A DNA stretch of 64,000 nt. Origin: an uncultured Akkermansia sp. Its GTDB lineage: Bacteria > Verrucomicrobiota > Verrucomicrobiia > Verrucomicrobiales > V1-33. The number at the start of each line of letters is the position of its first letter. Position 1 is the first letter of the stretch. The translations under genes were made by a program, and so were the position numbers. The stretch spans positions 17,683 to 81,682 of the forward strand of contig CAZFZN010000031.1 in the NCBI GenBank assembly GCA_964523105.1, in the 5' to 3' direction. Of this stretch, positions 1,803-59,244 are shown piece after piece. The notes beneath the pieces are model-generated. The model saw only the letters and a program-made list of their open reading frames with translations. It was not told where the DNA came from and made no database searches.

Positions 1803-2459
1803 ATGAAATCTCTTCCGATTCGCCGCTTGGTGTCCCCCTTATGCGCCCTCGTCGCCTCGCTGCTGACGTGGTCAGCAGCGCCGGCTGCGGCTCAGTCGGC
1901 CAAGCCTGACAAATCCGCCAAAACGTCCGCTTCCAAAGCCGCGGCTGCCAAGACCGGTGCCAAAACATCATCAAAGCCAGGCACTCCGACGAAATTCGAC
2001 CAGCACCTGGCGGCCCACATGAAACTCTTCCGCGTGCTCAGCCACTATGCGGAGGCGCTCTCGGAAGCGAAGGACGCCGCCACGGCGCATGCCGCCGTGA
2101 CCAAACTGGAAGGAATCACCCGGGATGCCATCACCGCCGGGGAGGAAATCGTCAAACTGGGCAAGCCGGACGCTCAGCTGGAAGCCAAACTCGCGGTCAA
2201 TCCCGACCTCAAAATGACTGCGCAAACCGTCGCCGAGCAAACGCGCACCGCGGTCAAATCGCTCGCGGAGAATGCCGAGGTCAAAGCCATTCTCGCTCCC
2301 TCGGTGGAGAACTTTCAGGCGGCGCTCAACCGGGTGCAGGAAGCGGCCGACGAACCATCCGAACCGGCGAAGGAAGCACCGGCGACACCCGCGGCCAAAC
2401 CGGATTCCCCGCAACCCGCCAGCGAAGCGACATCGGTCCCGCCTCCACCGCCGCAATGA
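1803..2459 (+). CDS. Secreted A/K/E/P-rich protein of unknown function
   Basis: ATG at 1803 gives the signal peptide MKSLPIRRLVSPLCALVASLLTWSAAPAAAQ. The body is helical and the C-terminus is proline-rich. Codons are GC3-rich. Confidence 0.6.
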   Translation: MKSLPIRRLVSPLCALVASLLTWSAAPAAAQSAKPDKSAKTSASKAAAAKTGAKTSSKPGTPTKFDQHLAAHMKLFRVLSHYAEALSEAKDAATAHAAVTKLEGITRDAITAGEEIVKLGKPDAQLEAKLAVNPDLKMTAQTVAEQTRTAVKSLAENAEVKAILAPSVENFQAALNRVQEAADEPSEPAKEAPATPAAKPDSPQPASEATSVPPPPPQ

Positions 2460-2523
2460 AAACCCGGCGGCGTCCGCCGGCAAACCTCTCTTGCGCGCTC
2501 CACAGCACGCGCCTTTGAATGAA

Positions 2524-2558
2524 CAGCCGCCCCTCACCGGGCGGCTGATTCTTTTCCC
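2524..2558 (+). terminator. Intrinsic-terminator-like hairpin abutting the lpdA start
   Basis: cagccgccc-ctcacc-gggcggctg (9-bp stem) followed by attcttttcc. The T-run ends about 8 nt before the lpdA ATG at 2564. Confidence 0.55.
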
Positions 2559-2563
2559 TCATC

Positions 2564-3952
<1,389 letters not shown>

Positions 3953-25837: not shown

Positions 25838-25874
25838 GCCGGGCAGTTCAGTTAAGTCGCAGCCGGGCAGTGCC

Positions 25875-25949
25875 TTAGCAAGGCCGTCCCGGCCTTGAGA
25901 GCAACCACCGTATCGGAGCGAAACGACAAGGCCGGGACGGCCTTGCTAC
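25875..25949. repeat. Inverted doublet of AGC-headed hairpin units between convergent genes
   Basis: 25875 TTAGC-AAGGCCG-tcc-CGGCCTT-g 25897, then a 29-nt spacer, then 25927 c-AAGGCCG-gga-CGGCCTT-GCTAC 25949. A degenerate single unit (GCAGC-AGGGCCG-tcc-CGGTCTT) lies at 15770..15792. Confidence 0.8.
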
Positions 25950-25991
25950 GGGCGCTCGCGGCGTCCGGCGGCAACTTTTCAGATTACCGCT

Positions 25992-29189: not shown

Positions 29190-30173
29190 TCACACCACGC
29201 ACCGCGGGCAGTGCTCCACCCAATGACCAGGCGTCAGTTCAACATACGGAGGCCGTTCGTTTACCAAAGGTTCGCCCGGAGCATCCACATTCCGCGGGCA
29301 GAAGCGGCAGCCGGGCGGCATTTTGTCGAGTGATGGCACCATGCCTTCGATGATCGGGAGCCGCGTCCGCGGCGTGCTGTCGAGCCGGGGAATGCTGGCC
29401 AGCAGCCCGCGGGTGTAGGCGTGGCGGGGATGGCCGAACAGTTCCGTAGCGGCAGCCCGCTCCACGATGCGCCCCGCATACATGACCACCACTTCATCGC
29501 ACATCTCCGCAATGACGCCGAGGTCGTGCGTGATGAGCAGCACGCTCATGCCCATGCTGCGCTGGAGGTCGCGGATGAGGTCCAGGATCTGCGCCTGCAC
29601 GGTGACATCGAGGGCGGTGGTCGGCTCGTCGGCAATGAGGAGCGAGGGATTGAGCGCCATGGCGATGGCAATGCCGACGCGCTGGCGCATCCCGCCGCTA
29701 AGCTGGTGCGGATATTCATGCACCCGAATGTCCGGCGCGGGAATCTGCACGCGGCGCAGCGCTTCGATGGCTTTGTCCTGCGCATCGCGGGCGTTGAGAC
29801 CCAGATGGAGGCGGAAGACTTCGGCGACTTGACGCCCCACGCGATGGACTGGATTGAGCGAGGTCATCGGCTCCTGGAAGATCATGCCCATGCGGTGGCC
29901 GCGGAGCTTCCACATTTCCTCCTCCCCGGCCTTCACGAGGTCGCGGCCGTCGAAATGAATACTGCCTCCGGTGATGACGCCGCTCGGATAGGGCAGCAGG
30001 CGCATGACACTCATGGCGGTGACGCTTTTGCCGCAGCCGCTTTCTCCGACGAGGCCGACGACTTTGCCGCGCGGCACGGAAAAGCTCACGCCGTCCACGG
30101 CGGTGACGCGCCCGGCGTCGGTGTCGAAGGCGACGCGCAGGTCTTTGATGTCGAGCAGCGGGGCCTCGCTCAT
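29190..30173 (-). CDS. ABC transporter ATP-binding protein (OppD/DppD type)
   Basis: The start [14 protein letters not shown] overlaps the upstream stop as ATGA. Walker A GESGCGKS, signature LSGGMRQR, Walker [13 protein letters not shown]. Confidence 0.9.
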
Positions 30174-32179
30174 GCGTCCTTCTCCTTCCATTGGTCGTAC
30201 GTCAGGATCTGCGGCGGGAAGGTGCGGCCCTCCTTCATGGCGCGCTGGGTTTCCTCCTTCATCTTCGTGTCTATCCAGTAGAGGTGAAACTCCTCCCAGT
30301 CGCGGCTGGTGCGGGCATTGAAGCCTTTGGGAAAACGCATCCAGCGCCAGTGGGCTACGCGGTAGTAGTCCTGCACCCACGCGGGCACGAAGGCGGCGTC
30401 ATCGTGGAGCCACGCCATCATTTCGCGCGCCAGACGCACAATCTCCGGCATGTTGTCGGCCTTCTCGTAGGCTTCGATGAGCGCGTCCAGTTCCTTGCTC
30501 GCGGTCATGGTTTCGTTGTTCGTATCCGTCTTGATGCTTCCGTCCTCCTTGTAGGCGTTGGAGCTGTGCCACGTCTCGCGGAAACGCGGATACAGTTCCA
30601 CTGAGACGTTTTTGGCTCCAAACGAAAGATCGTGCTTCTTCTCATCGGCCTTCTTCCACGCGGCGGTCTGTTCAATGATTTCCAGGTTGAATTCGACGCC
30701 CGCTTTGACGGCTTCCTTCTTCAGAATGGTGAGCACATCGGCGAACATCTTGTAGCCGGTGGTCATGGTGAACGACAGACGCTCCTGCTTATCATTCACA
30801 AAGATGCCGTCCGGCCCGCGCTGCGTGAACCCGGCCTGAGCAAAGAGTTTTTCCGCGGCGGGGATGTCGAAGGCGCGGGCCTTGATGCCGGGGAAGGTGA
30901 CTTCCGGGTAGCCGTCGCTGCTGGTCTGCATCCGCGTGGCGTCGCCTTTGAAGACTTCGCGGATGGCGAGGTCCCAGTTCATGGCGTGCTGGATGCCCTG
31001 ACGGATAAGTTTTTCCTTCAACAGCGGGCGCGAGCAGTTGATGCTGAAGCCCCACGTCACGCGCGGGATTTGATTGTAGAAGAGCACCTTCTCGATGTAG
31101 CCCTTCGCCACCTCCGGCGCGTCGTGCGGCAGCTTGCGGTGCCAGTAGTCGGACAGTCGCATGGTGAAGATGTCCAGCTCCCCTTTGCGGAAGACCTCGA
31201 AGGCCTTGTTCATGTCGCGGATGGTCACGAAACTCATGCGGTCCACGTTGTAGCGGTAGCGCATGTGCTTCCGGTCCGCGGCCCACCAGTTCGACACTTT
31301 GGTGAGGAGAATGCGGCGGCCTTTGTCCACGTTTTCCGGGCGCACTTCGTAGGCGCCGGTGGTGGGCTCGAATTTCCACTGATACACGTCCTGCCAGTCG
31401 TCGGCGAGTTCGAGATAGAAGTGAACCGGCACGGGCCGGACGCTGGTGGCCTTGTAGAGCAGGTCCGGCTTCTTGTCGCGCATGGAAATGGCGATGGTGA
31501 GATCGTCGAATTTCGTGATCCGCGTGAAGGTGTCAGTGTAAAACTGCTGATACCACAGATCGGCGGTGTAGTTGCACCGCATGAAGTAGAAGCAGAACAG
31601 ATAGTCGTCGGCGCGGACGGGCACGCCGTCACTGAATGTCGCGGCGGGATCGAGCTTGAAGTAAATGGTGCGCCCGTCGGGATCGAAGGCCCACTTTTCC
31701 GCCAGCTCGGCATACCACTGGAAGTTGTCCGGGTGCTGACTGGCCAGTTTCATCGCATTGGCATCGAGGATGTATTTGCGGAACGCACCGCTGGCATCCG
31801 GGCCGATAAACCGCAGCGTGCGCGCGAAGTCGGGCATGTAATGGTAATACGTGCCACCCTTCTTCGCGGCAGGGTCGCCGAATTCCGGCACGTTCGCGCC
31901 GTCCTCCCATTTCAAATCAGCGGGCACTTTGTCCGGCGTGGAGAAGATGAAGAAGTCCGGATAGCGGCGGAAGAACTCCATTGCCTCGTCCGGCAGCGGG
32001 GCGCGCTCGGCTTTGTAATTGAACGGGCGCTCGTTACGGCGGCAGGCGGAGAGCGCCGCGGCGGCGGCTCCGGCGCTGAGTTGCAGCGCCCGGCGGCGGG
32101 AGAGCGTGGCCCGGGCTTCCAGCCCGAAGGAGGGAGACTGCGGGCTGGAAGCCTGAGCCACTGTCTGGTCAGCGTTCAT
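30170..32179 (-). CDS. ABC transporter substrate-binding protein, family 5 (peptide/opine type), unusually large
   Basis: The start MNADQ is followed by [19 protein letters not shown] (a twin-arginine-like signal plus lipobox). About 670 aa. ATGA overlap with the upstream permease stop. Confidence 0.8.
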
Positions 32180-33237
32180 CGGTAGGTGGTGAATTTGCGC
32201 GGATCGTAGGCCTCGCGCACGGCTTCGCCGACAAAGGTGACGAGCAGCAGCACAGCGACGAGGCCGCTGAACGCCGAGAGCACGATCCACTCTGCGTCTT
32301 TGTTATCGAGGCCCACCTGGAGCATCTCGCCCCAGCTCGGCGTAGGGCGCGGCAGGCCGAAATTGAGGAAATCCAGCGCTGTCAGCGCCGTGATGCCCGC
32401 GGCGACAGTGAACGGCAAAAAGGTGACAAGCGTGGAGATTGTGTTAGGCAGGATGTGGCGGAAGATGAGCCGCAACGGCCCCGCGCCGGCGAGCCGCGCT
32501 GAGGCTACATAGTCGCGCGCCTTTTCCTTGAGCGTGGCCGTGCGGAGGAACCATGCTTTCGTCGTCCACGCGAAGATGACCATGATGAACAGCAGGATCA
32601 GGATGCGCGGAGCGGTGCCCACATCCGCAGGAACGAGCGAGATGCCGATCATGACGATGTAGAGGAACGGGATGTTGGCCCAGATTTCCACGATGCGTTG
32701 ACCGATGAGGTCCACCGCGCCGCCGAGATAGCCCATGAGGCAGCCGATGACGATGGCGACGAGCATGGTGAGCAGCGTGTAACTCAGGGAGAAGAGGATG
32801 ACGTTTCGGAATCCATAAACCATGCGCGAGAGCACATCGCGCCCGGTGACATCGGTGCCCAGCCAGTGCCGCCGCGCGCCATCGGGCGGCTGCGGATGGC
32901 TGACGCCTTCGCGGAAGTCGCTGTCCTGCGGTCCCCAGGGGATAAGCGGCATGAGCACCCAGTTGCCCTGATCCTCCGTTTTAAAGCGGTCCTGCAGCGC
33001 GCGGTAGTTCGTCTCGTACTTGTAGCTCTCACCGAAGGTCTCGCCGGGAATGATCGCGCCGTAGGTGGGGAAGTAAGTCTTGCCCTCGTAGCGCACGAGC
33101 AGCGCGCGGCCGTTGACCCACAATTCCGCCAGCAGGGCCAGCACAATGAGCAGCACCAGCAGAACGAGCGACCAGTAGCCCCGCTTGATGGAGCGGAAGC
33201 GCTGGAGGCGTTTGCGGGTGAGCGGGTTGAGCGGCAT
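32176..33237 (-). CDS. ABC transporter permease (OppC/DppC type)
   Basis: ATG 33237 gives MPLNPLTRKRLQRFRS. Six TM helices and the EAA-like loop (ASARLAGAGPLRLIFRHILPN). Confidence 0.85.
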   Translation of the reverse strand: MPLNPLTRKRLQRFRSIKRGYWSLVLLVLLIVLALLAELWVNGRALLVRYEGKTYFPTYGAIIPGETFGESYKYETNYRALQDRFKTEDQGNWVLMPLIPWGPQDSDFREGVSHPQPPDGARRHWLGTDVTGRDVLSRMVYGFRNVILFSLSYTLLTMLVAIVIGCLMGYLGGAVDLIGQRIVEIWANIPFLYIVMIGISLVPADVGTAPRILILLFIMVIFAWTTKAWFLRTATLKEKARDYVASARLAGAGPLRLIFRHILPNTISTLVTFLPFTVAAGITALTALDFLNFGLPRPTPSWGEMLQVGLDNKDAEWIVLSAFSGLVAVLLLVTFVGEAVREAYDPRKFTTYR

Positions 33238-37793: not shown

Positions 37794-37840
37794 GACACCG
37801 GCAGCGTAGCGCACCGGGCTCGATGAAAAGAAGAAAACCG

Positions 37841-37960
37841 CGGATGGACACGGATGGACGCCGCTGCAAGGCACCGCCTTCCCCATCCCTCCCGCCCCGC
37901 CGCTTCCTCCTTTCCTCTCAGACAAAAGTATCCGTGTTCATCCGTGTCCATCCGTGGTTC
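37841..37960. repeat. Inverted arrays of 10-nt tandem units flanking a pyrimidine-rich 70-nt spacer
   Basis: 37841 cggatggaca-cggatggacg 37860 faces 37931 tccgtgttca-tccgtgtcca-tccgtggttc 37960. The element lies in a divergent promoter region. Confidence 0.7.
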
Positions 37961-41887: not shown

Positions 41888-41972
41888 GTAGCGCGGGCAT
41901 GGCGCAGCCTGCCCGTGTTCGCTCCCTGCCTCGGAAAACAAACGCGGCCAGCCTGCGGCATGACCGCGCTAC
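41888..41972. repeat. Inverted doublet of GTAGC-headed hairpin units (same family as 3956..3985)
   Basis: 41888 GTAGC-GCGGGCA-tggcgcagcc-TGCCCGT 41916 and 41944 GCGGCCA-gcctgcggca-TGACCGC-GCTAC 41972. Confidence 0.75.
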
Positions 41973-45448: not shown

Positions 45449-47374
45449 ATGAAACCCGTCCGCTTTTGGCCCCTGGCCACCGTCATTATCCTGCCCGTGC
45501 TCGTGCTGGCGGCGGCTTCGGTTTATGGGCTCATCCAACGCGGGAAGGCCACGCGGGTCGAAGCCGCCGCGCAGTGCCGGATCGAGTATGTGGATTCCCT
45601 CTGGGGCAATGTTTGGGGTGAGGCTGTGGAGGCGTCGCCGCGGGTGGTGCTTTACGATGACCCGCCGCGGCCCCGCGAGAAGGTGCCGTTCCCAGGCGGG
45701 CTCTTGGACCTGGATGACGGCCCCTTTCCCACGCCGGAACAGCAGCGGGAAGGCGAGTCGCGGCTGGACAAGGCCGTGACGGAAAAAGACCTCGCCGCCC
45801 TGCGCAGCCTCATGGAGGAAAAGGATCACGCTCCATGGTTCACCGCGTCCGGCATTCCCATCCCGGCGCTCGCCGCATGGCACTGGATCCAGACCAGGCT
45901 GGACGCGCCGGCCTCCATTCCCCCCGCGGATGTCGCGCTGGCAGTGCGCGTGCTGACGGTGGAGGCACCCTCGGTGCTCACCACGACGCTGCTGGATAAG
46001 TTGTCAGCGCATTTTCCCGACGCGGTCGCCGAGGGACGCCGCGTCTGGCAACTCATGGAAGTGCGGCGCGCCGCCTTTCGCCGCACCTCGCCGCTGCGAT
46101 ACCGGCGGGGCAACGGCGCCTACGGCCCTCCCCAGGTCGTGCCCCTGCCTCACAATTCCCTGGAAGTGACCGGCCTGCCGGTGGACGAAGTGAAAAACCG
46201 CTGGCCGGGCCTGATCTGGACGGGCCGGCAGCGGCCGCTAACGTTTGCCCTCGTGATGCCCGGCCATCGTGGCGAGGAACGCGTGCTGCTGGAGGCGGAA
46301 CTGCACGCCGCTGCGCGCACCCTGGCCGAAAAGTCCGTGCCCCTGCTGCCGCCCTGGGCGACCGCCGGTGTGACGCTGAAGCCGGAGAGTTTCATCCGCT
46401 CCGGCATTCGCCTGCCGGAAATCCCGCTGGGCACGGAAGTCGGCCAGCCCCTGACAACGCGCGAGAGCAGCCTCTGGACGGTAACCGCCGGCGCGAAGGA
46501 GAGAGGCGCGATTTTTAAAGACTACGAGCGCCTCGTGCTGTGGGCCGCTGCCTTCATCCTCACCAGTCTGCTCACCGCCCTGCTCGGCCTGCGTTACATC
46601 CGCCGAACGCTGCACAAGGAGCGCCGCCTGGGAGAGATGAAGAGCCAGTTTGTCAGCAGCGTGAGTCATGAACTGCGCGCCCCCATTGGCTCCCTGCGCC
46701 TCATGGCCGAGGGACTGGCCAGCGGCAAAGTGTCAGGCAAAGCCGCGGACGAATTCCACCGCCTCATGGCCGGCGAAGGCGCGCGCCTTTCCTCACTCAT
46801 CGAAAACGTGCTCGACTTCGCCCGCATCGAACAGGGCCGGAAGCAGTATCACCTGGCCGAAACCGACGTGGCCGCGCTGGTGCAGGACGCCGTGAAGCTC
46901 ATGCAGCCGCAGGCTGAGGCGCGCGGATTGAAGATCACCTGCGAGTGCGCGCCACTGCCTTTCATTCCGAAAGTGGACGCCGGCGCCGTGCAGCAGGCGC
47001 TGATCAATCTGCTCGATAACGCCATAAAATTCTCGCCGGCCAACGTAGCTCGACATTCCAATGTCGAGTCGGGCGCGGACTCGACATTGGAATGTCGAGC
47101 TACAATCCACGTCCGCCTCGCTCCTGACGCCCCGGGGTGGTCCCTCTCAGTAACCGATCAGGGCGGGGGCATCCCGGAAGAGGAACACGCCCGCATCTTC
47201 GAGCGCTTCTACCGCCTGGGAAATGAACTGCGCCGCGAAACCACCGGCACCGGCATCGGTTTGGCCATTGTGAAGCACATCGTCGAAGGCCACGGCGGTC
47301 GCGTGAGGGTGCAGTCTGAAATGGGGAAAGGCAGTGAGTTCAGAATGGAGTTCACACAAAAGGCTGAAGGCTAA
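45449..47374 (+). CDS. Sensor histidine kinase (two TM helices, ~340-aa periplasmic domain, HisKA + HATPase_c)
   Basis: H-box SHELRAPI, N-box LLDNAIKFSP, G-boxes DQGGGI and GTGIGLAIV. Confidence 0.9.
   Translation: MKPVRFWPLATVIILPVLVLAAASVYGLIQRGKATRVEAAAQCRIEYVDSLWGNVWGEAVEASPRVVLYDDPPRPREKVPFPGGLLDLDDGPFPTPEQQREGESRLDKAVTEKDLAALRSLMEEKDHAPWFTASGIPIPALAAWHWIQTRLDAPASIPPADVALAVRVLTVEAPSVLTTTLLDKLSAHFPDAVAEGRRVWQLMEVRRAAFRRTSPLRYRRGNGAYGPPQVVPLPHNSLEVTGLPVDEVKNRWPGLIWTGRQRPLTFALVMPGHRGEERVLLEAELHAAARTLAEKSVPLLPPWATAGVTLKPESFIRSGIRLPEIPLGTEVGQPLTTRESSLWTVTAGAKERGAIFKDYERLVLWAAAFILTSLLTALLGLRYIRRTLHKERRLGEMKSQFVSSVSHELRAPIGSLRLMAEGLASGKVSGKAADEFHRLMAGEGARLSSLIENVLDFARIEQGRKQYHLAETDVAALVQDAVKLMQPQAEARGLKITCECAPLPFIPKVDAGAVQQALINLLDNAIKFSPANVARHSNVESGADSTLECRATIHVRLAPDAPGWSLSVTDQGGGIPEEEHARIFERFYRLGNELRRETTGTGIGLAIVKHIVEGHGGRVRVQSEMGKGSEFRMEFTQKAEG
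47045..47103. repeat. Perfect 59-nt doublet of GTAGC-headed hairpins embedded in frame in the kinase CDS
   Basis: 47045 GTAGCTCGACATTCCAATGTCGAGTC, then gggcgcg, then GACTCGACATTGGAATGTCGAGCTAC 47103. The 26-nt arms are exact reverse complements. Confidence 0.9.
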
Positions 47375-47445
47375 AGGCTGAGGTATGAAACCTCCGATGC
47401 GCGCTCCTTTCAGCCTTCAGCCTTCATACTTCATACTTCATACTT
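47360..47445. repeat. Inverted heptamer arrays (AAGGCTG)x3 / (CAGCCTT)x2-3 followed by (TTCATAC)x3
   Basis: 47360 aaggctgaaggctaaaggctgagg, then a 22-nt loop, then 47406 cctttcagccttcagcctt, then ttcatac x3 ending 6 nt before the response-regulator ATG. Confidence 0.7.
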
Positions 47446-47449
47446 TCCC

Positions 47450-48136
47450 ATGCGCCTCCTCATCATCGAAGACGAACTGCCCATGCGCACCGCGCTCTGC
47501 GAGACTCTCACCGCCGAGGGTTACAAAGTGCGCAGCGCCGCCGACGGCGAGGCCGGCCTCCAGCGCGCCCTCACTGAAGAGCACGATCTCATTCTCCTCG
47601 ACGTGATGATGCCGAAGCTGGACGGCTACGCCCTTTGCCAGGAACTCCGCCGCCGCGGCCGGAAGACGCCCGTGCTCATGCTCACCGCCAAAGGCCAGGT
47701 GGACGACCGCGTGAGCGGCCTCGACGCCGGCGCCGACGATTACCTGGTGAAGCCCTTCTCCATGCGCGAACTCCTCGCCCGCGTGCGCGCCCTGCTCCGC
47801 CGCGCCGAACGCGCAGACGCCGCCCCTCCGTTGCTGACGCTGGGCGACACCGTGGTGGATTTCGTGAAACAGACCGCCCGGCGCGGCAGTCAGGCGATCG
47901 AGCTTTCCCAAAAGGAATTCGCCATGCTCCGCCTCATGGCCAGCCGGCCCGGCGAGGTCATCAGCCGAGAGACCTTCCTGGATGAAGTCTGGGAATACAA
48001 CGCCTGGCCGACGACGCGCACCGTGGACAATTTCATTGCCGCCCTGCGCGCGAGAATCGAGCCCGACCCCGAGCGCCCGCGCTACATCGAGACCGTGCGC
48101 GGCACCGGTTACCGGCTCGCGCCGGGGAAGCCATGA
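47450..48136 (+). CDS. OmpR-family response regulator
   Basis: Receiver domain (LLDVMMPKLDG, LTAK) plus a winged-helix output domain (VRGTGYRL). Confidence 0.93.
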   Translation: MRLLIIEDELPMRTALCETLTAEGYKVRSAADGEAGLQRALTEEHDLILLDVMMPKLDGYALCQELRRRGRKTPVLMLTAKGQVDDRVSGLDAGADDYLVKPFSMRELLARVRALLRRAERADAAPPLLTLGDTVVDFVKQTARRGSQAIELSQKEFAMLRLMASRPGEVISRETFLDEVWEYNAWPTTRTVDNFIAALRARIEPDPERPRYIETVRGTGYRLAPGKP

Positions 48137-49439: not shown

Positions 49440-49514
49440 GGAGCGTGGAGTTGCACTCCGCCCAAAGAAACCCGCGAACCAATGCCGCCCCGGCGGAGTG
49501 CAACTCCGCGCTCC
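49440..49514. repeat. Inverted doublet of AGC-headed hairpin units
   Basis: 49440 GGAGC-GTGGAGT-tgc-ACTCCGC-c 49462, then a 29-nt spacer, then 49492 g-GCGGAGT-gca-ACTCCGC-GCTCC 49514. Confidence 0.75.
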
Positions 49515-56484: not shown

Positions 56485-56670
56485 CATGGCCCGGACGGGC
56501 CATCAGATTCAGCCCACGGCAGCTTCGCTGCCGTGGGATAGCTTTCTGTGAACTCCCGCGCCCCGGAGCGGGCGCCAGAGACTTCTCCGGATGCCCTCTC
56601 GCGCCCGCTCCGGGGCGCAGGATATGACACCAACGCCCCCACGGCAGCCGGGCTGCCGTGGGCTGAATCT
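56485..56670. repeat. Composite nested palindrome (three hairpin-unit types)
   Basis: ATGGCCC-gga-CGGGCCAT. Outer pair: agattCAGC-CCACGGCAGC-ttc-GCTGCCGTGG (56505..56537) and CCACGGCAGC-cgg-GCTGCCGTGG-GCTGaatct (56638..56670). Inner pair: GCGCCCCGGAGCGGGCGC (56558..56575) and GCGCCCGCTCCGGGGCGC (56601..56618). Confidence 0.75.
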
Positions 56671-56764
56671 CCTGACCCTCCGGGCCAGTCGCCAAACCCT
56701 GCGCATTCTACTCACGAACTGTCTGTGAAACTGTTCGCCCGGACCCGGCTTGACCGGGTTTGGA

Positions 56765-59123: not shown

Positions 59124-59178
59124 GTGTTGCTTTCTTTGTTTTGTGTTTTGGAAAGCGGGCAGCCGGACTTCGGATGAA

Positions 59179-59244
59179 GTGTTCAGTTTTCAGATTTCAG
59201 TTTTCAGATGCACGACCTGAAGACTGAAACCTGAACACTGAAAC
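59179..59244 (-). promoter_or_regulatory. Long imperfect hairpin in the pnp 5' leader built from inverted heptamer arrays
   Basis: The minus strand reads (GUUUCAG UGUUCAG GUUUCAG UCUUCAG) gucgugcau (CUGAAAA CUGAAAU CUGAAAA CUGAACA). It lies 56-121 nt upstream of the pnp ATG and downstream of the rpsO terminator. Confidence 0.5.

Follow-up and report, generated by a model that had tools for sequence, protein, structure and literature searches.

How does a perfect palindrome come to lie within the ATP-binding domain of a sensor histidine kinase, and what kind of element is it? This question is raised by a stretch of 64,000 nt from an uncultured Akkermansia sp. (assembly GCA_964523105.1, contig CAZFZN010000031.1), which was analysed as a whole and is called the window below. 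Its kinase gene (45449-47374, plus strand) contains the palindromic block 47045 GTAGCTCGACATTCCAATGTCGAGTC / GGGCGCG / GACTCGACATTGGAATGTCGAGCTAC 47103. We assign a probability of roughly 0.8 to the interpretation that this block is a dimer of a repetitive extragenic palindromic (REP) element, which carries a GTAG head, belongs to a family called REP-A here and sits in a loop of the kinase, with its two units arranged tail-to-tail, i.e. heads outward.

A palindrome in a kinase loop

The two arms of the block comprise 26 nt each, are 100% reverse-complementary according to the repeat finder and are separated by 7 nt, which agrees with the initial annotation of this DNA made from the sequence alone. 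When up to 3 mismatches were allowed, no third match of the arm appeared in the 64-kb window, and matches were obtained in 0 of 100 dinucleotide shuffles. Folded as RNA, the block forms a 26-bp stem of -50.7 kcal/mol (z = -10.6), a stability that was reached by 0 of 200 shuffles. As had also been proposed, each arm is a hairpin in itself, since one arm folds as single-stranded DNA into an 8-bp hairpin (-7.4 kcal/mol, z = -7.3). The kinase gene including the insert is present at 100% identity over 3.2-3.9 kb in the Logan assemblies ERR2586217 and ERR2586216; the agreement of two independent assemblies means that the insert is no artefact of a single one.

The host gene encodes 641 aa and gives Pfam matches of 4.2e-26 and 8.9e-14 for HisKA (residues 397-463) and HATPase_c (residues 510-636). 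The block starts on a codon boundary, at V533, and encodes VARHSNVESGADSTLECRAT (residues 533-552). Hence, the 60-nt block of the initial annotation is correct with regard to its start, but the palindrome proper is 59 nt long, which is not a multiple of three, and 60 nt are reached only with one adjoining base. Its position between the N-box and the following strand was confirmed. Upstream are the N-box helix codons LLDNAIKF (47009-47032, plus strand; helix 511-528 in the model) and the codons SPAN (47033-47044, plus strand), which belong to the native loop according to the orthologue comparison; downstream are the codons IHVRL (47105-47119, plus strand) of the first beta-strand of the ATP-binding domain, a modelled strand with the motif E-[IV]-x-[IV]-x-L conserved in orthologues. 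The TAG of the GTAG head is indeed out of frame in the open reading frame 45449-47374. The H-box, N-box, G1, F and G2 motifs are all intact; H407, N524, D570, G572, G574, F584, G600, G602 and G604 are invariant among 109 homologues, and the gene is paired with the downstream gene of the cognate OmpR-type response regulator (47450-48136, plus strand; Pfam Response_reg and Trans_reg_C). Judged from these motifs, the kinase otherwise looks functional despite the insert.

Structural modelling of the domain, which the initial annotation had suggested as a check, renders the insert as a coil of low confidence that connects the N-box helix with the following strand. The AlphaFold model (mean predicted local distance difference test score, pLDDT, of 88.2) has a helix at 511-528, a coil at 531-550 with a pLDDT of ~58 and a strand at 551-560 with a pLDDT of 96, which starts in the final residues of the insert (A551, T552) and continues through IHVRL. 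The closest solved structure is HK853 (2c2a/6azr, E ~1e-38), in which the native loop reads SKKDAPDKY. According to the model, the insert would lengthen a surface loop that is probably disordered, and it is probably near-neutral for the protein.

That this segment was gained and is no regular part of the kinase is indicated by the comparison with orthologues. Most of 28 aligned orthologues lack it and show the clean gap that had been expected, and the orthology of the loci is confirmed by the conserved gene order Ank/TPR - kinase - regulator - DUF5077. The distance between F528 and D570 amounts to 41 residues in the window kinase compared with 23-25 residues in 59 of the 109 homologues. The site is empty at the loci L130 and L131, and it reads SPANAE in the orthologue P0006. 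When proteins were searched with an 83-aa stretch spanning the insert, only 8 short kinase fragments without the insert were obtained; as even P0001 and P0012 were missed, this result is uninformative.

As a separate observation, approximately 40% of the 109 homologues carry extra segments in the region from the N-box to G1, for the most part within the hairpin that succeeds the first strand. These are often repetitive or palindrome-like, e.g. TSNLEPR x3 in P0073, SVEAT x3 in P0089 or SVECRVSS...PRPSTL in P0090. In this group of kinases, repeat insertions seem to collect generally in this part of the ATP-binding domain.

A family of GTAG-headed repeats

The block can be divided into two units of 24 nt. 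The left unit (47045-47068, plus strand) consists of the GTAG head plus a 20-nt hairpin core, CTCGACATTCCAATGTCGAG, and is read as the eight codons VARHSNVE. The right unit (47080-47103, minus strand) is inverted (CTCGACATTGGAATGTCGAG + CTAC), interrupts a Glu codon (GA|...|A) and encodes (D)STLECRA(T). Between them lies the 11-nt spacer TCGGGCGCGGA (47069-47079, plus strand). With a stem of 8-9 bp and a loop of 2-4 nt, the hairpin of each unit falls into the range given for GTAG-type REPs, i.e. a stem of 5-13 bp and a loop of 2-20 nt (Di Nocera, De Gregorio and Rocco, 2013, BMC Genomics 14:522, PMC3733652).

We scanned 185,579 representative genomes for the 20-nt core CTCGACATT-SS-AATGTCGAG. 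At least 172 exact cores were found in at least 119 genome stretches, so that the search for copies of the arm in related genomes, recommended in the initial annotation, had a positive outcome. Among the matches listed, to which the remaining counts of this and the next paragraph on copies and pairs refer, the record titles are nearly all Verrucomicrobiota (Limisphaerales, Chthoniobacter, Verrucomicrobiaceae) with a few odd labels, and single metagenome-assembled genomes (MAGs) such as WRPG01 and JAXDQW01 have REP-A on dozens of contigs. The bases G, T, A and G of the head occur in 165, 162, 159 and 164 of 168 co-oriented copies; both units of the window begin with this GTAG, which is hence kept at 95-98% at each base across the family. 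The flanks are less uniform: C precedes the head in 58% and T or A succeeds the core in 89% of the 168 copies. With regard to the odd labels, MAGs titled 'uncultured Klebsiella sp.' and 'Akkermansia muciniphila' (e.g. L008, L021, L029, L022 and L030) contain many REP-A copies together with proteins of planctomycete/verrucomicrobial type (DUF1553, PSCyt), and these names look doubtful.

The prevalent layout of the family is GTAG-core, spacer, core-CTAC, and the window copy has the same arrangement. Pairs with at most 2 mismatches within 90 nt are tail-to-tail in 94 cases and head-to-head in 6. The spacers of the 94 tail-to-tail pairs measure 11-55 nt, and no spacer sequence recurs. Eighteen of these 94 doublets lie within frames that are open for at least 100 codons on each side, and at least 8 other proteins with Pfam domains carry in-frame REP-A doublets. 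Hence, the earlier proposal of a REP/REPIN-type element in a coding sequence (REPIN, REP doublet forming a hairpin) stands as regards REP, because the arm belongs to a large GTAG-headed family with a link to transposase-like genes; the REPIN part is not borne out, as the spacers differ and 18 of 94 doublets are found in open frames. Another arrangement was observed at one orthologous site, where L057 (4236-4308) has a full doublet and L024 (6901-6929) a 28-nt hairpin headed at both ends (GTTG-core-CTAC), which looks like a doublet collapsed by slippage between the cores.

The link to transposases comes from other genomes. Genes of 248-267 aa that resemble REP-associated tyrosine transposases (RAYTs) have REP-A units or arrays on their flanks at L030 (2436-3182) and L035 (5223-6026). 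Their products reach 34.5 and 28.1 bits against Pfam Y1_Tnp (cut-off 23), and REP_Tyr_transpos is their top NCBIfam model. At L030 (region 2100-3420), four tandem REP-A units ~92 nt apart precede the gene, with 8 nt between the end of the last one and the ATG, and the stop codon of the RAYT-like gene is provided by the TAG in a GTAG head. The region 4880-6060 of L035 likewise comprises the RAYT-like gene with flanking REP-A. These arrangements suggest that REP-A is mobilised by a RAYT.

A probable pair of units around native loop sequence

One of the most obvious questions is whether the block entered the kinase gene as a whole. We regard it as fairly probable that two 24-nt units surround 11 nt of the native loop, and that the block is not one insert of 60 nt. 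If 47045-47068 and 47080-47103 are excised, the gene reads GCC AAC TCG GGC GCG GAA ATC, i.e. A N S G A E I followed by H V R L; the spacer together with base 47104 then encodes S G A E and can be interpreted as kinase loop. This excision of 2 x 24 nt rebuilds the Glu before the strand, which is conserved in most close orthologues, and results in a spacing of 25 residues between F528 and D570. In contrast, excision of 60 nt leaves 21 residues, a spacing found in 0 of the 109 homologues. The claim that deletion of the 60-nt block restores the usual spacing of 23-25 residues could therefore not be upheld. Moreover, the spacer codons GGC GCG GA+A agree at 7 of 9 bases with GAC GCG GAG (D A E) at the empty site of L131, and HMMER puts the middle of the insert ('gads') on the native loop of HK853 with a gap on either side.

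Similar results were obtained with other inserted genes. The excision of units likewise rebuilds the Glu codon in the kinases L001 (REP-A; GA|G) and L006, in which the units belong to a second family, REP-B; the loop then has 27 residues in L006, which is near normal, and about 30 in L001. When the glycerol kinase L076 is compared with the structures 3g25/2dpn, its loop has 7 residues versus 6 with the spacer retained and 1 after removal of the whole block. For the DUF1553 protein L022, compared with the uninserted L012, the values are 9 versus 11 with the spacer kept and 2 with the whole block removed. Furthermore, the outer lengths of the in-frame REP-A doublets leave a remainder of 0, 1 or 2 after division by three in 6, 7 and 5 cases (among the matches listed); those confirmed by Pfam measure 75, 78, 81, 64, 70, 62 and 68 nt, and the one in the window 59 nt. 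Since all three classes occur, the frame is evidently kept not by a doublet length that is a multiple of three, as had been assumed in the initial annotation, but by the unit of eight codons.

On this basis the following course of events may be proposed. REP-A would be a non-autonomous repeat, whose 24-nt unit is formed by GTAG and a hairpin with a 9-bp stem, and which a RAYT, an enzyme of the HUH/Y1 type, presumably moves in trans as single-stranded DNA. Two units of opposite orientation would have entered, 11 nt apart, the DNA of the loop that connects the N-box helix with the first beta-strand. Because a unit comprises exactly eight codons, each insertion would preserve the frame, without a target duplication, and the sole stop, the TAG of the head, would fall out of frame. 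The result would be 16 added residues, VARHSNVE and STLECRAT, on both sides of the native S-G-A-E loop.

Age of the insert and possible re-use of the site

The initial annotation regarded the perfect arms as a possible sign of a recent event. However, the kinase gene L001 (P0012) contains the same two REP-A units at the same junctions as the window, even though the kinase cores, by whose nucleotide identity relatedness was judged throughout, are only 79% identical and the third codon positions 58%. In L001, an in-frame deletion has removed 6 nt from the hairpin loop of the right unit, after which come three extra codons. Nevertheless, the arms are identical at 42 of 42 aligned positions, for which the chance at 79% identity is ~5e-5, and the spacer at 9 of 11 positions. 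At three other pairs of orthologous sites, the arms are identical at 141 of 144 positions (~98%), compared with 84% for the spacers and 86% for the flanks. Arms that remain identical despite diverged flanks point to maintenance rather than recency. Hence, the insert is probably old, and its arms have, as we infer, been actively maintained. In agreement with this, a very long persistence of REP populations has been reported (bioRxiv 10.1101/2021.07.10.451892). The 11-nt spacer common to the window and L001 had also been considered as proof of a single insertion; this argument was dropped because the spacer matches native codons.

Other relatives carry different sequences at the same site. L004, with a kinase core 89% identical to that of the window, has an insert of 12 aa with another hairpin (z = -3.7), and L006 (86%) has a REP-B doublet (z = -9.9), whose right unit stands at a junction identical to that of the window, GA|G ATC. 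In the next loop, after EIVISL, L007 (P0017) contains two tandem 85-nt GTAG-headed doublets in frame (GTAGAGGGCGACGTTAGGAGACC...GGTCTCGTTACCTCGCCCTCTAC), and P0018 has one copy. L131, which has no insert, is equally near to the window group as L001, and a neighbour-joining tree of 28 full-length kinases gave bootstrap values of at most 51% around the window sequence. A metagenome scan for N-box codons followed by a REP-A head found the L001 contig alone. REP-A doublets at one common position were also seen in two DUF1553 (PSD1) proteins on different contigs of one MAG, L022 (5906-5974) and L083 (453-481), in both cases after a YRQ/YRR motif; this pair is a second case of either site re-use or shared ancestry within coding sequence.

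A more far-reaching proposal, which is quite improbable in our judgement, regards REP-A units as frame-neutral cassettes of eight codons that enter as inverted pairs around resident DNA; other REP families may then re-use an occupied site or overwrite it (the window and L001 have REP-A, L006 has REP-B and L004 another hairpin). If this were true, RAYTs would be guided by REPs in their targeting, and some mechanism would hold the arms identical across lineages that have diverged by ~20%, possibly the 26-bp mRNA stem by modulating the kinase-regulator operon.

Alternative explanations

Several findings weigh against our interpretation as a mobile REP-A dimer or against its origin from two units. 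The RAYT-like proteins score only 59 and 66 bits against REP_Tyr_transpos, below the NCBIfam equivalog cut-off of 80, and the 64-kb window contains neither a second REP-A copy (up to 3 mismatches) nor a RAYT gene detectable by tblastn. L003 and L005 have a segment of 12-13 aa at the same site that is not palindromic (z ~0) and shows only scattered matches when aligned to REP-A with MAFFT. The loops freed of REP units do not fit exactly, with +2 aa versus L131, +1 in the glycerol kinase and -2 in the DUF1553 protein; removal of the whole block, which leaves 21 residues in the window and in L006 alike, is also self-consistent. Finally, a composite repeat recurs whole at L018 (43-101) and L106 (4358-4416 and 4484-4542), so that some REP-A doublets do spread as units; in it, a variant unit whose stem has changed in a compensatory manner (ACTTT/AAAGT) is followed by a spacer of 11 nt and a REP-A unit, and both the spacer and the flanks are conserved. 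Together with the latter two observations, the known replication of Pseudomonas REPINs as entire doublets (Bertels and Rainey, 2011, PMC3116915) would speak for a single REPIN-like doublet of 59/60 nt, spacer included, which transposed between AAC (N532) and ATC (I553) and survived as a multiple of three. We consider this somewhat unlikely, since the 59-nt palindrome demands an assumed extra base, the remaining spacing of 21 residues does not occur in the homologues, in which 25 is common, and the conserved Glu before the strand would be absent. The agreement of the spacer with the native D-A-E codons of L131, the lack of enrichment of multiples of three among in-frame doublets and the fact that 94 of 94 listed tail-to-tail spacers differ are also better explained by two separate units.

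With regard to the age of such a dimer of two units, REP-A could have arrived in the window and in L001 through separate and recent events of targeted insertion at the same two positions, e.g. beside an older REP relic or a feature of the loop sequence. The wide distribution of REP-A means that a source is always at hand, and the other REP family with its right unit at the exact junction in L006, the hairpin in L004, the tandem doublets in the next loop of L007, the near but uninserted L131 and the common site of L022 and L083 would all suit this possibility. Nevertheless, it appears unlikely, because the flank preference of REP-A is weak, both junctions would hardly be struck twice by chance, and other genome pairs show REP-A conserved at orthologous sites. 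It is very unlikely that the hairpin was retained for a role at the DNA or RNA level, for example as a 26-bp mRNA stem that is cut by RNase III or stalls ribosomes and thereby sets the kinase:regulator ratio. The arm conservation between the window and L001 as well as at the three other sites, the high stability of the stem and the regulator gene just downstream are consistent with such a role. However, the nearest relatives L004 and L006 have unrelated sequence at the site and most orthologues have nothing there, i.e. no kinase-specific function is conserved; intergenic sites show equal arm conservation, which makes it a property of the REP-A family and not of this gene, and no Rfam family was matched. 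The possibility of a known structured RNA was rejected, as Rfam gave only sub-threshold matches to miRNA-like hairpins. Assembly errors or template switching can create perfect palindromes, but the probability of an assembly or chimera artefact, or of a palindrome that arose locally without a mobile element, is practically negligible in view of the two identical Logan assemblies, a near-identical insert in JGI and ENA contigs of another lineage and the fact that the arm equals the consensus of REP-A, of which more than 170 copies were counted.

Relation to known elements

The presence of in-frame GTAG REP dimers in coding sequences, their frequency in Verrucomicrobia and one example in a sensor kinase are already published (Di Nocera et al., 2013, PMC3733652). 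These authors described GTAG-tagged REPs with a GTAG head beside a short stem-loop (stem 6-9 bp), inverted dimers, variable spacers in tail-to-tail dimers and an association with RAYT genes. Intragenic GTAG REPs were reported to peak in the verrucomicrobium Opitutus terrae, where more than 50% are dimers or grouped repeats encoding 20-30 aa; a GTAG-7 dimer was found in the sensor histidine kinase Smlt4296 of S. maltophilia (aa 589-612), and recB genes of Xanthomonas carry different REPs at about one site (PMC3733652). REP-A resembles these elements in its head, short stem-loop, inverted dimers and intragenic copies, and in two other genomes it flanks RAYT-like genes. However, the REP-A stem CTCGACATT/AATGTCGAG is absent from the REP-encoded peptides tabulated for O. 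terrae and others, which argues for a further GTAG family, and that publication states neither the unit of eight codons nor resident coding sequence as the spacer of a dimer. The points of interest for specialists are, hence, this unit, the native spacer, the conservation of the arms and the fact that several palindromic elements occupy the same loop in different kinases.

A REPIN is by definition a doublet that replicates in one piece and has a conserved spacer, and its location is almost always extragenic (Bertels and Rainey, 2011, PMC3116915; PMC3337134). REP-A is similar to REPINs in the two inverted REPs within a long hairpin and the long persistence in lineages; REPINs go with a single-copy RAYT flanked by the same REPs, and REP-A flanks a RAYT-like gene in two genomes. 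It differs in its spacers, as 94 are unique among the matches listed and the one in the kinase matches native codons, with the composite of L018/L106 as exception. It also differs in its location, with 18 of 94 doublets in open frames and at least 8 in proteins with Pfam domains. As to mobility, the 'peel and paste' mechanism of IS200/IS605 elements, in which TnpA enzymes of the Y1 HUH type bind sub-terminal hairpins on single-stranded DNA and insertion is seamless without target duplication (PMC6006769), would fit the clean gain of 24 nt. A REP unit has only one hairpin and no gene, and its movement by RAYTs is proposed by analogy.

The Rickettsia palindromic element RPE-1 has a length of ~100-150 bp, is confined to Rickettsia, possesses no GTAG head and has no known RAYT partner. 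Such elements are reportedly selfish DNA that lies in frame in functional genes and adds surface peptides, as Ogata and colleagues are said to have described in 2000. REP-A is alike in behaviour only, given its unit of 24 nt, the doublet of 59 nt, the GTAG head and the verrucomicrobial hosts. For genome annotation, an oddity of 16-20 residues in the ATP-binding domain of a kinase can be explained as selfish DNA, and not as a sequencing error or a new domain. Moreover, the locus represents a natural experiment, with the same REP pair in two diverged lineages, another REP family in one relative, another hairpin in a further one and nothing in most. It bears on the questions of whether dimers are built from separate unit insertions, whether occupied sites attract REPs and how the arms stay identical.

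Other repeats in the window

Intergenic doublets with outward heads are located at 1571-1632, 25873-25951, 41888-41972 and 49440-49514, with GTAG-like heads (GTAG, GCAG, TTAG and GGAG) and with entirely different stems. The doublets 1571-1632 and 25873-25951 share with REP-A and REP-B a loop that is of the TCC type when read with the head at the 5' end. The initial annotation had considered the architecture of the kinase block to match that of the intergenic doublets; this applies to heads and layout, whereas the stems differ. These data suggest several REP families with common head and loop and distinct stems. At 32101-32166, the window also contains a doublet of the REP-B family (GTGGC[CT]CGGGCTTCCAGCCCG...), which was found in the kinase loop of L006; this doublet may be within the minus-strand open reading frame 30170-32290, near the N-terminus of its product, or intergenic if the start is situated further downstream.

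Further inverted repeats, nested or long-range, show no sequence relationship to REP-A: at 56497-56678, arms of 41 nt enclose a second pair of 34 nt, and at 37836-37959 two 24-nt arms are separated by 76 nt. An inverted repeat of short AGGCTGA-like tandem motifs (AAGGCTGAAGGCTAAA / TTCAGCCTTCAGCCTT) at 47360-47424 covers the stop codon of the kinase gene, precedes the regulator gene and looks like a terminator or attenuator. Such palindromes built from short motifs are also present at 59178-59239.

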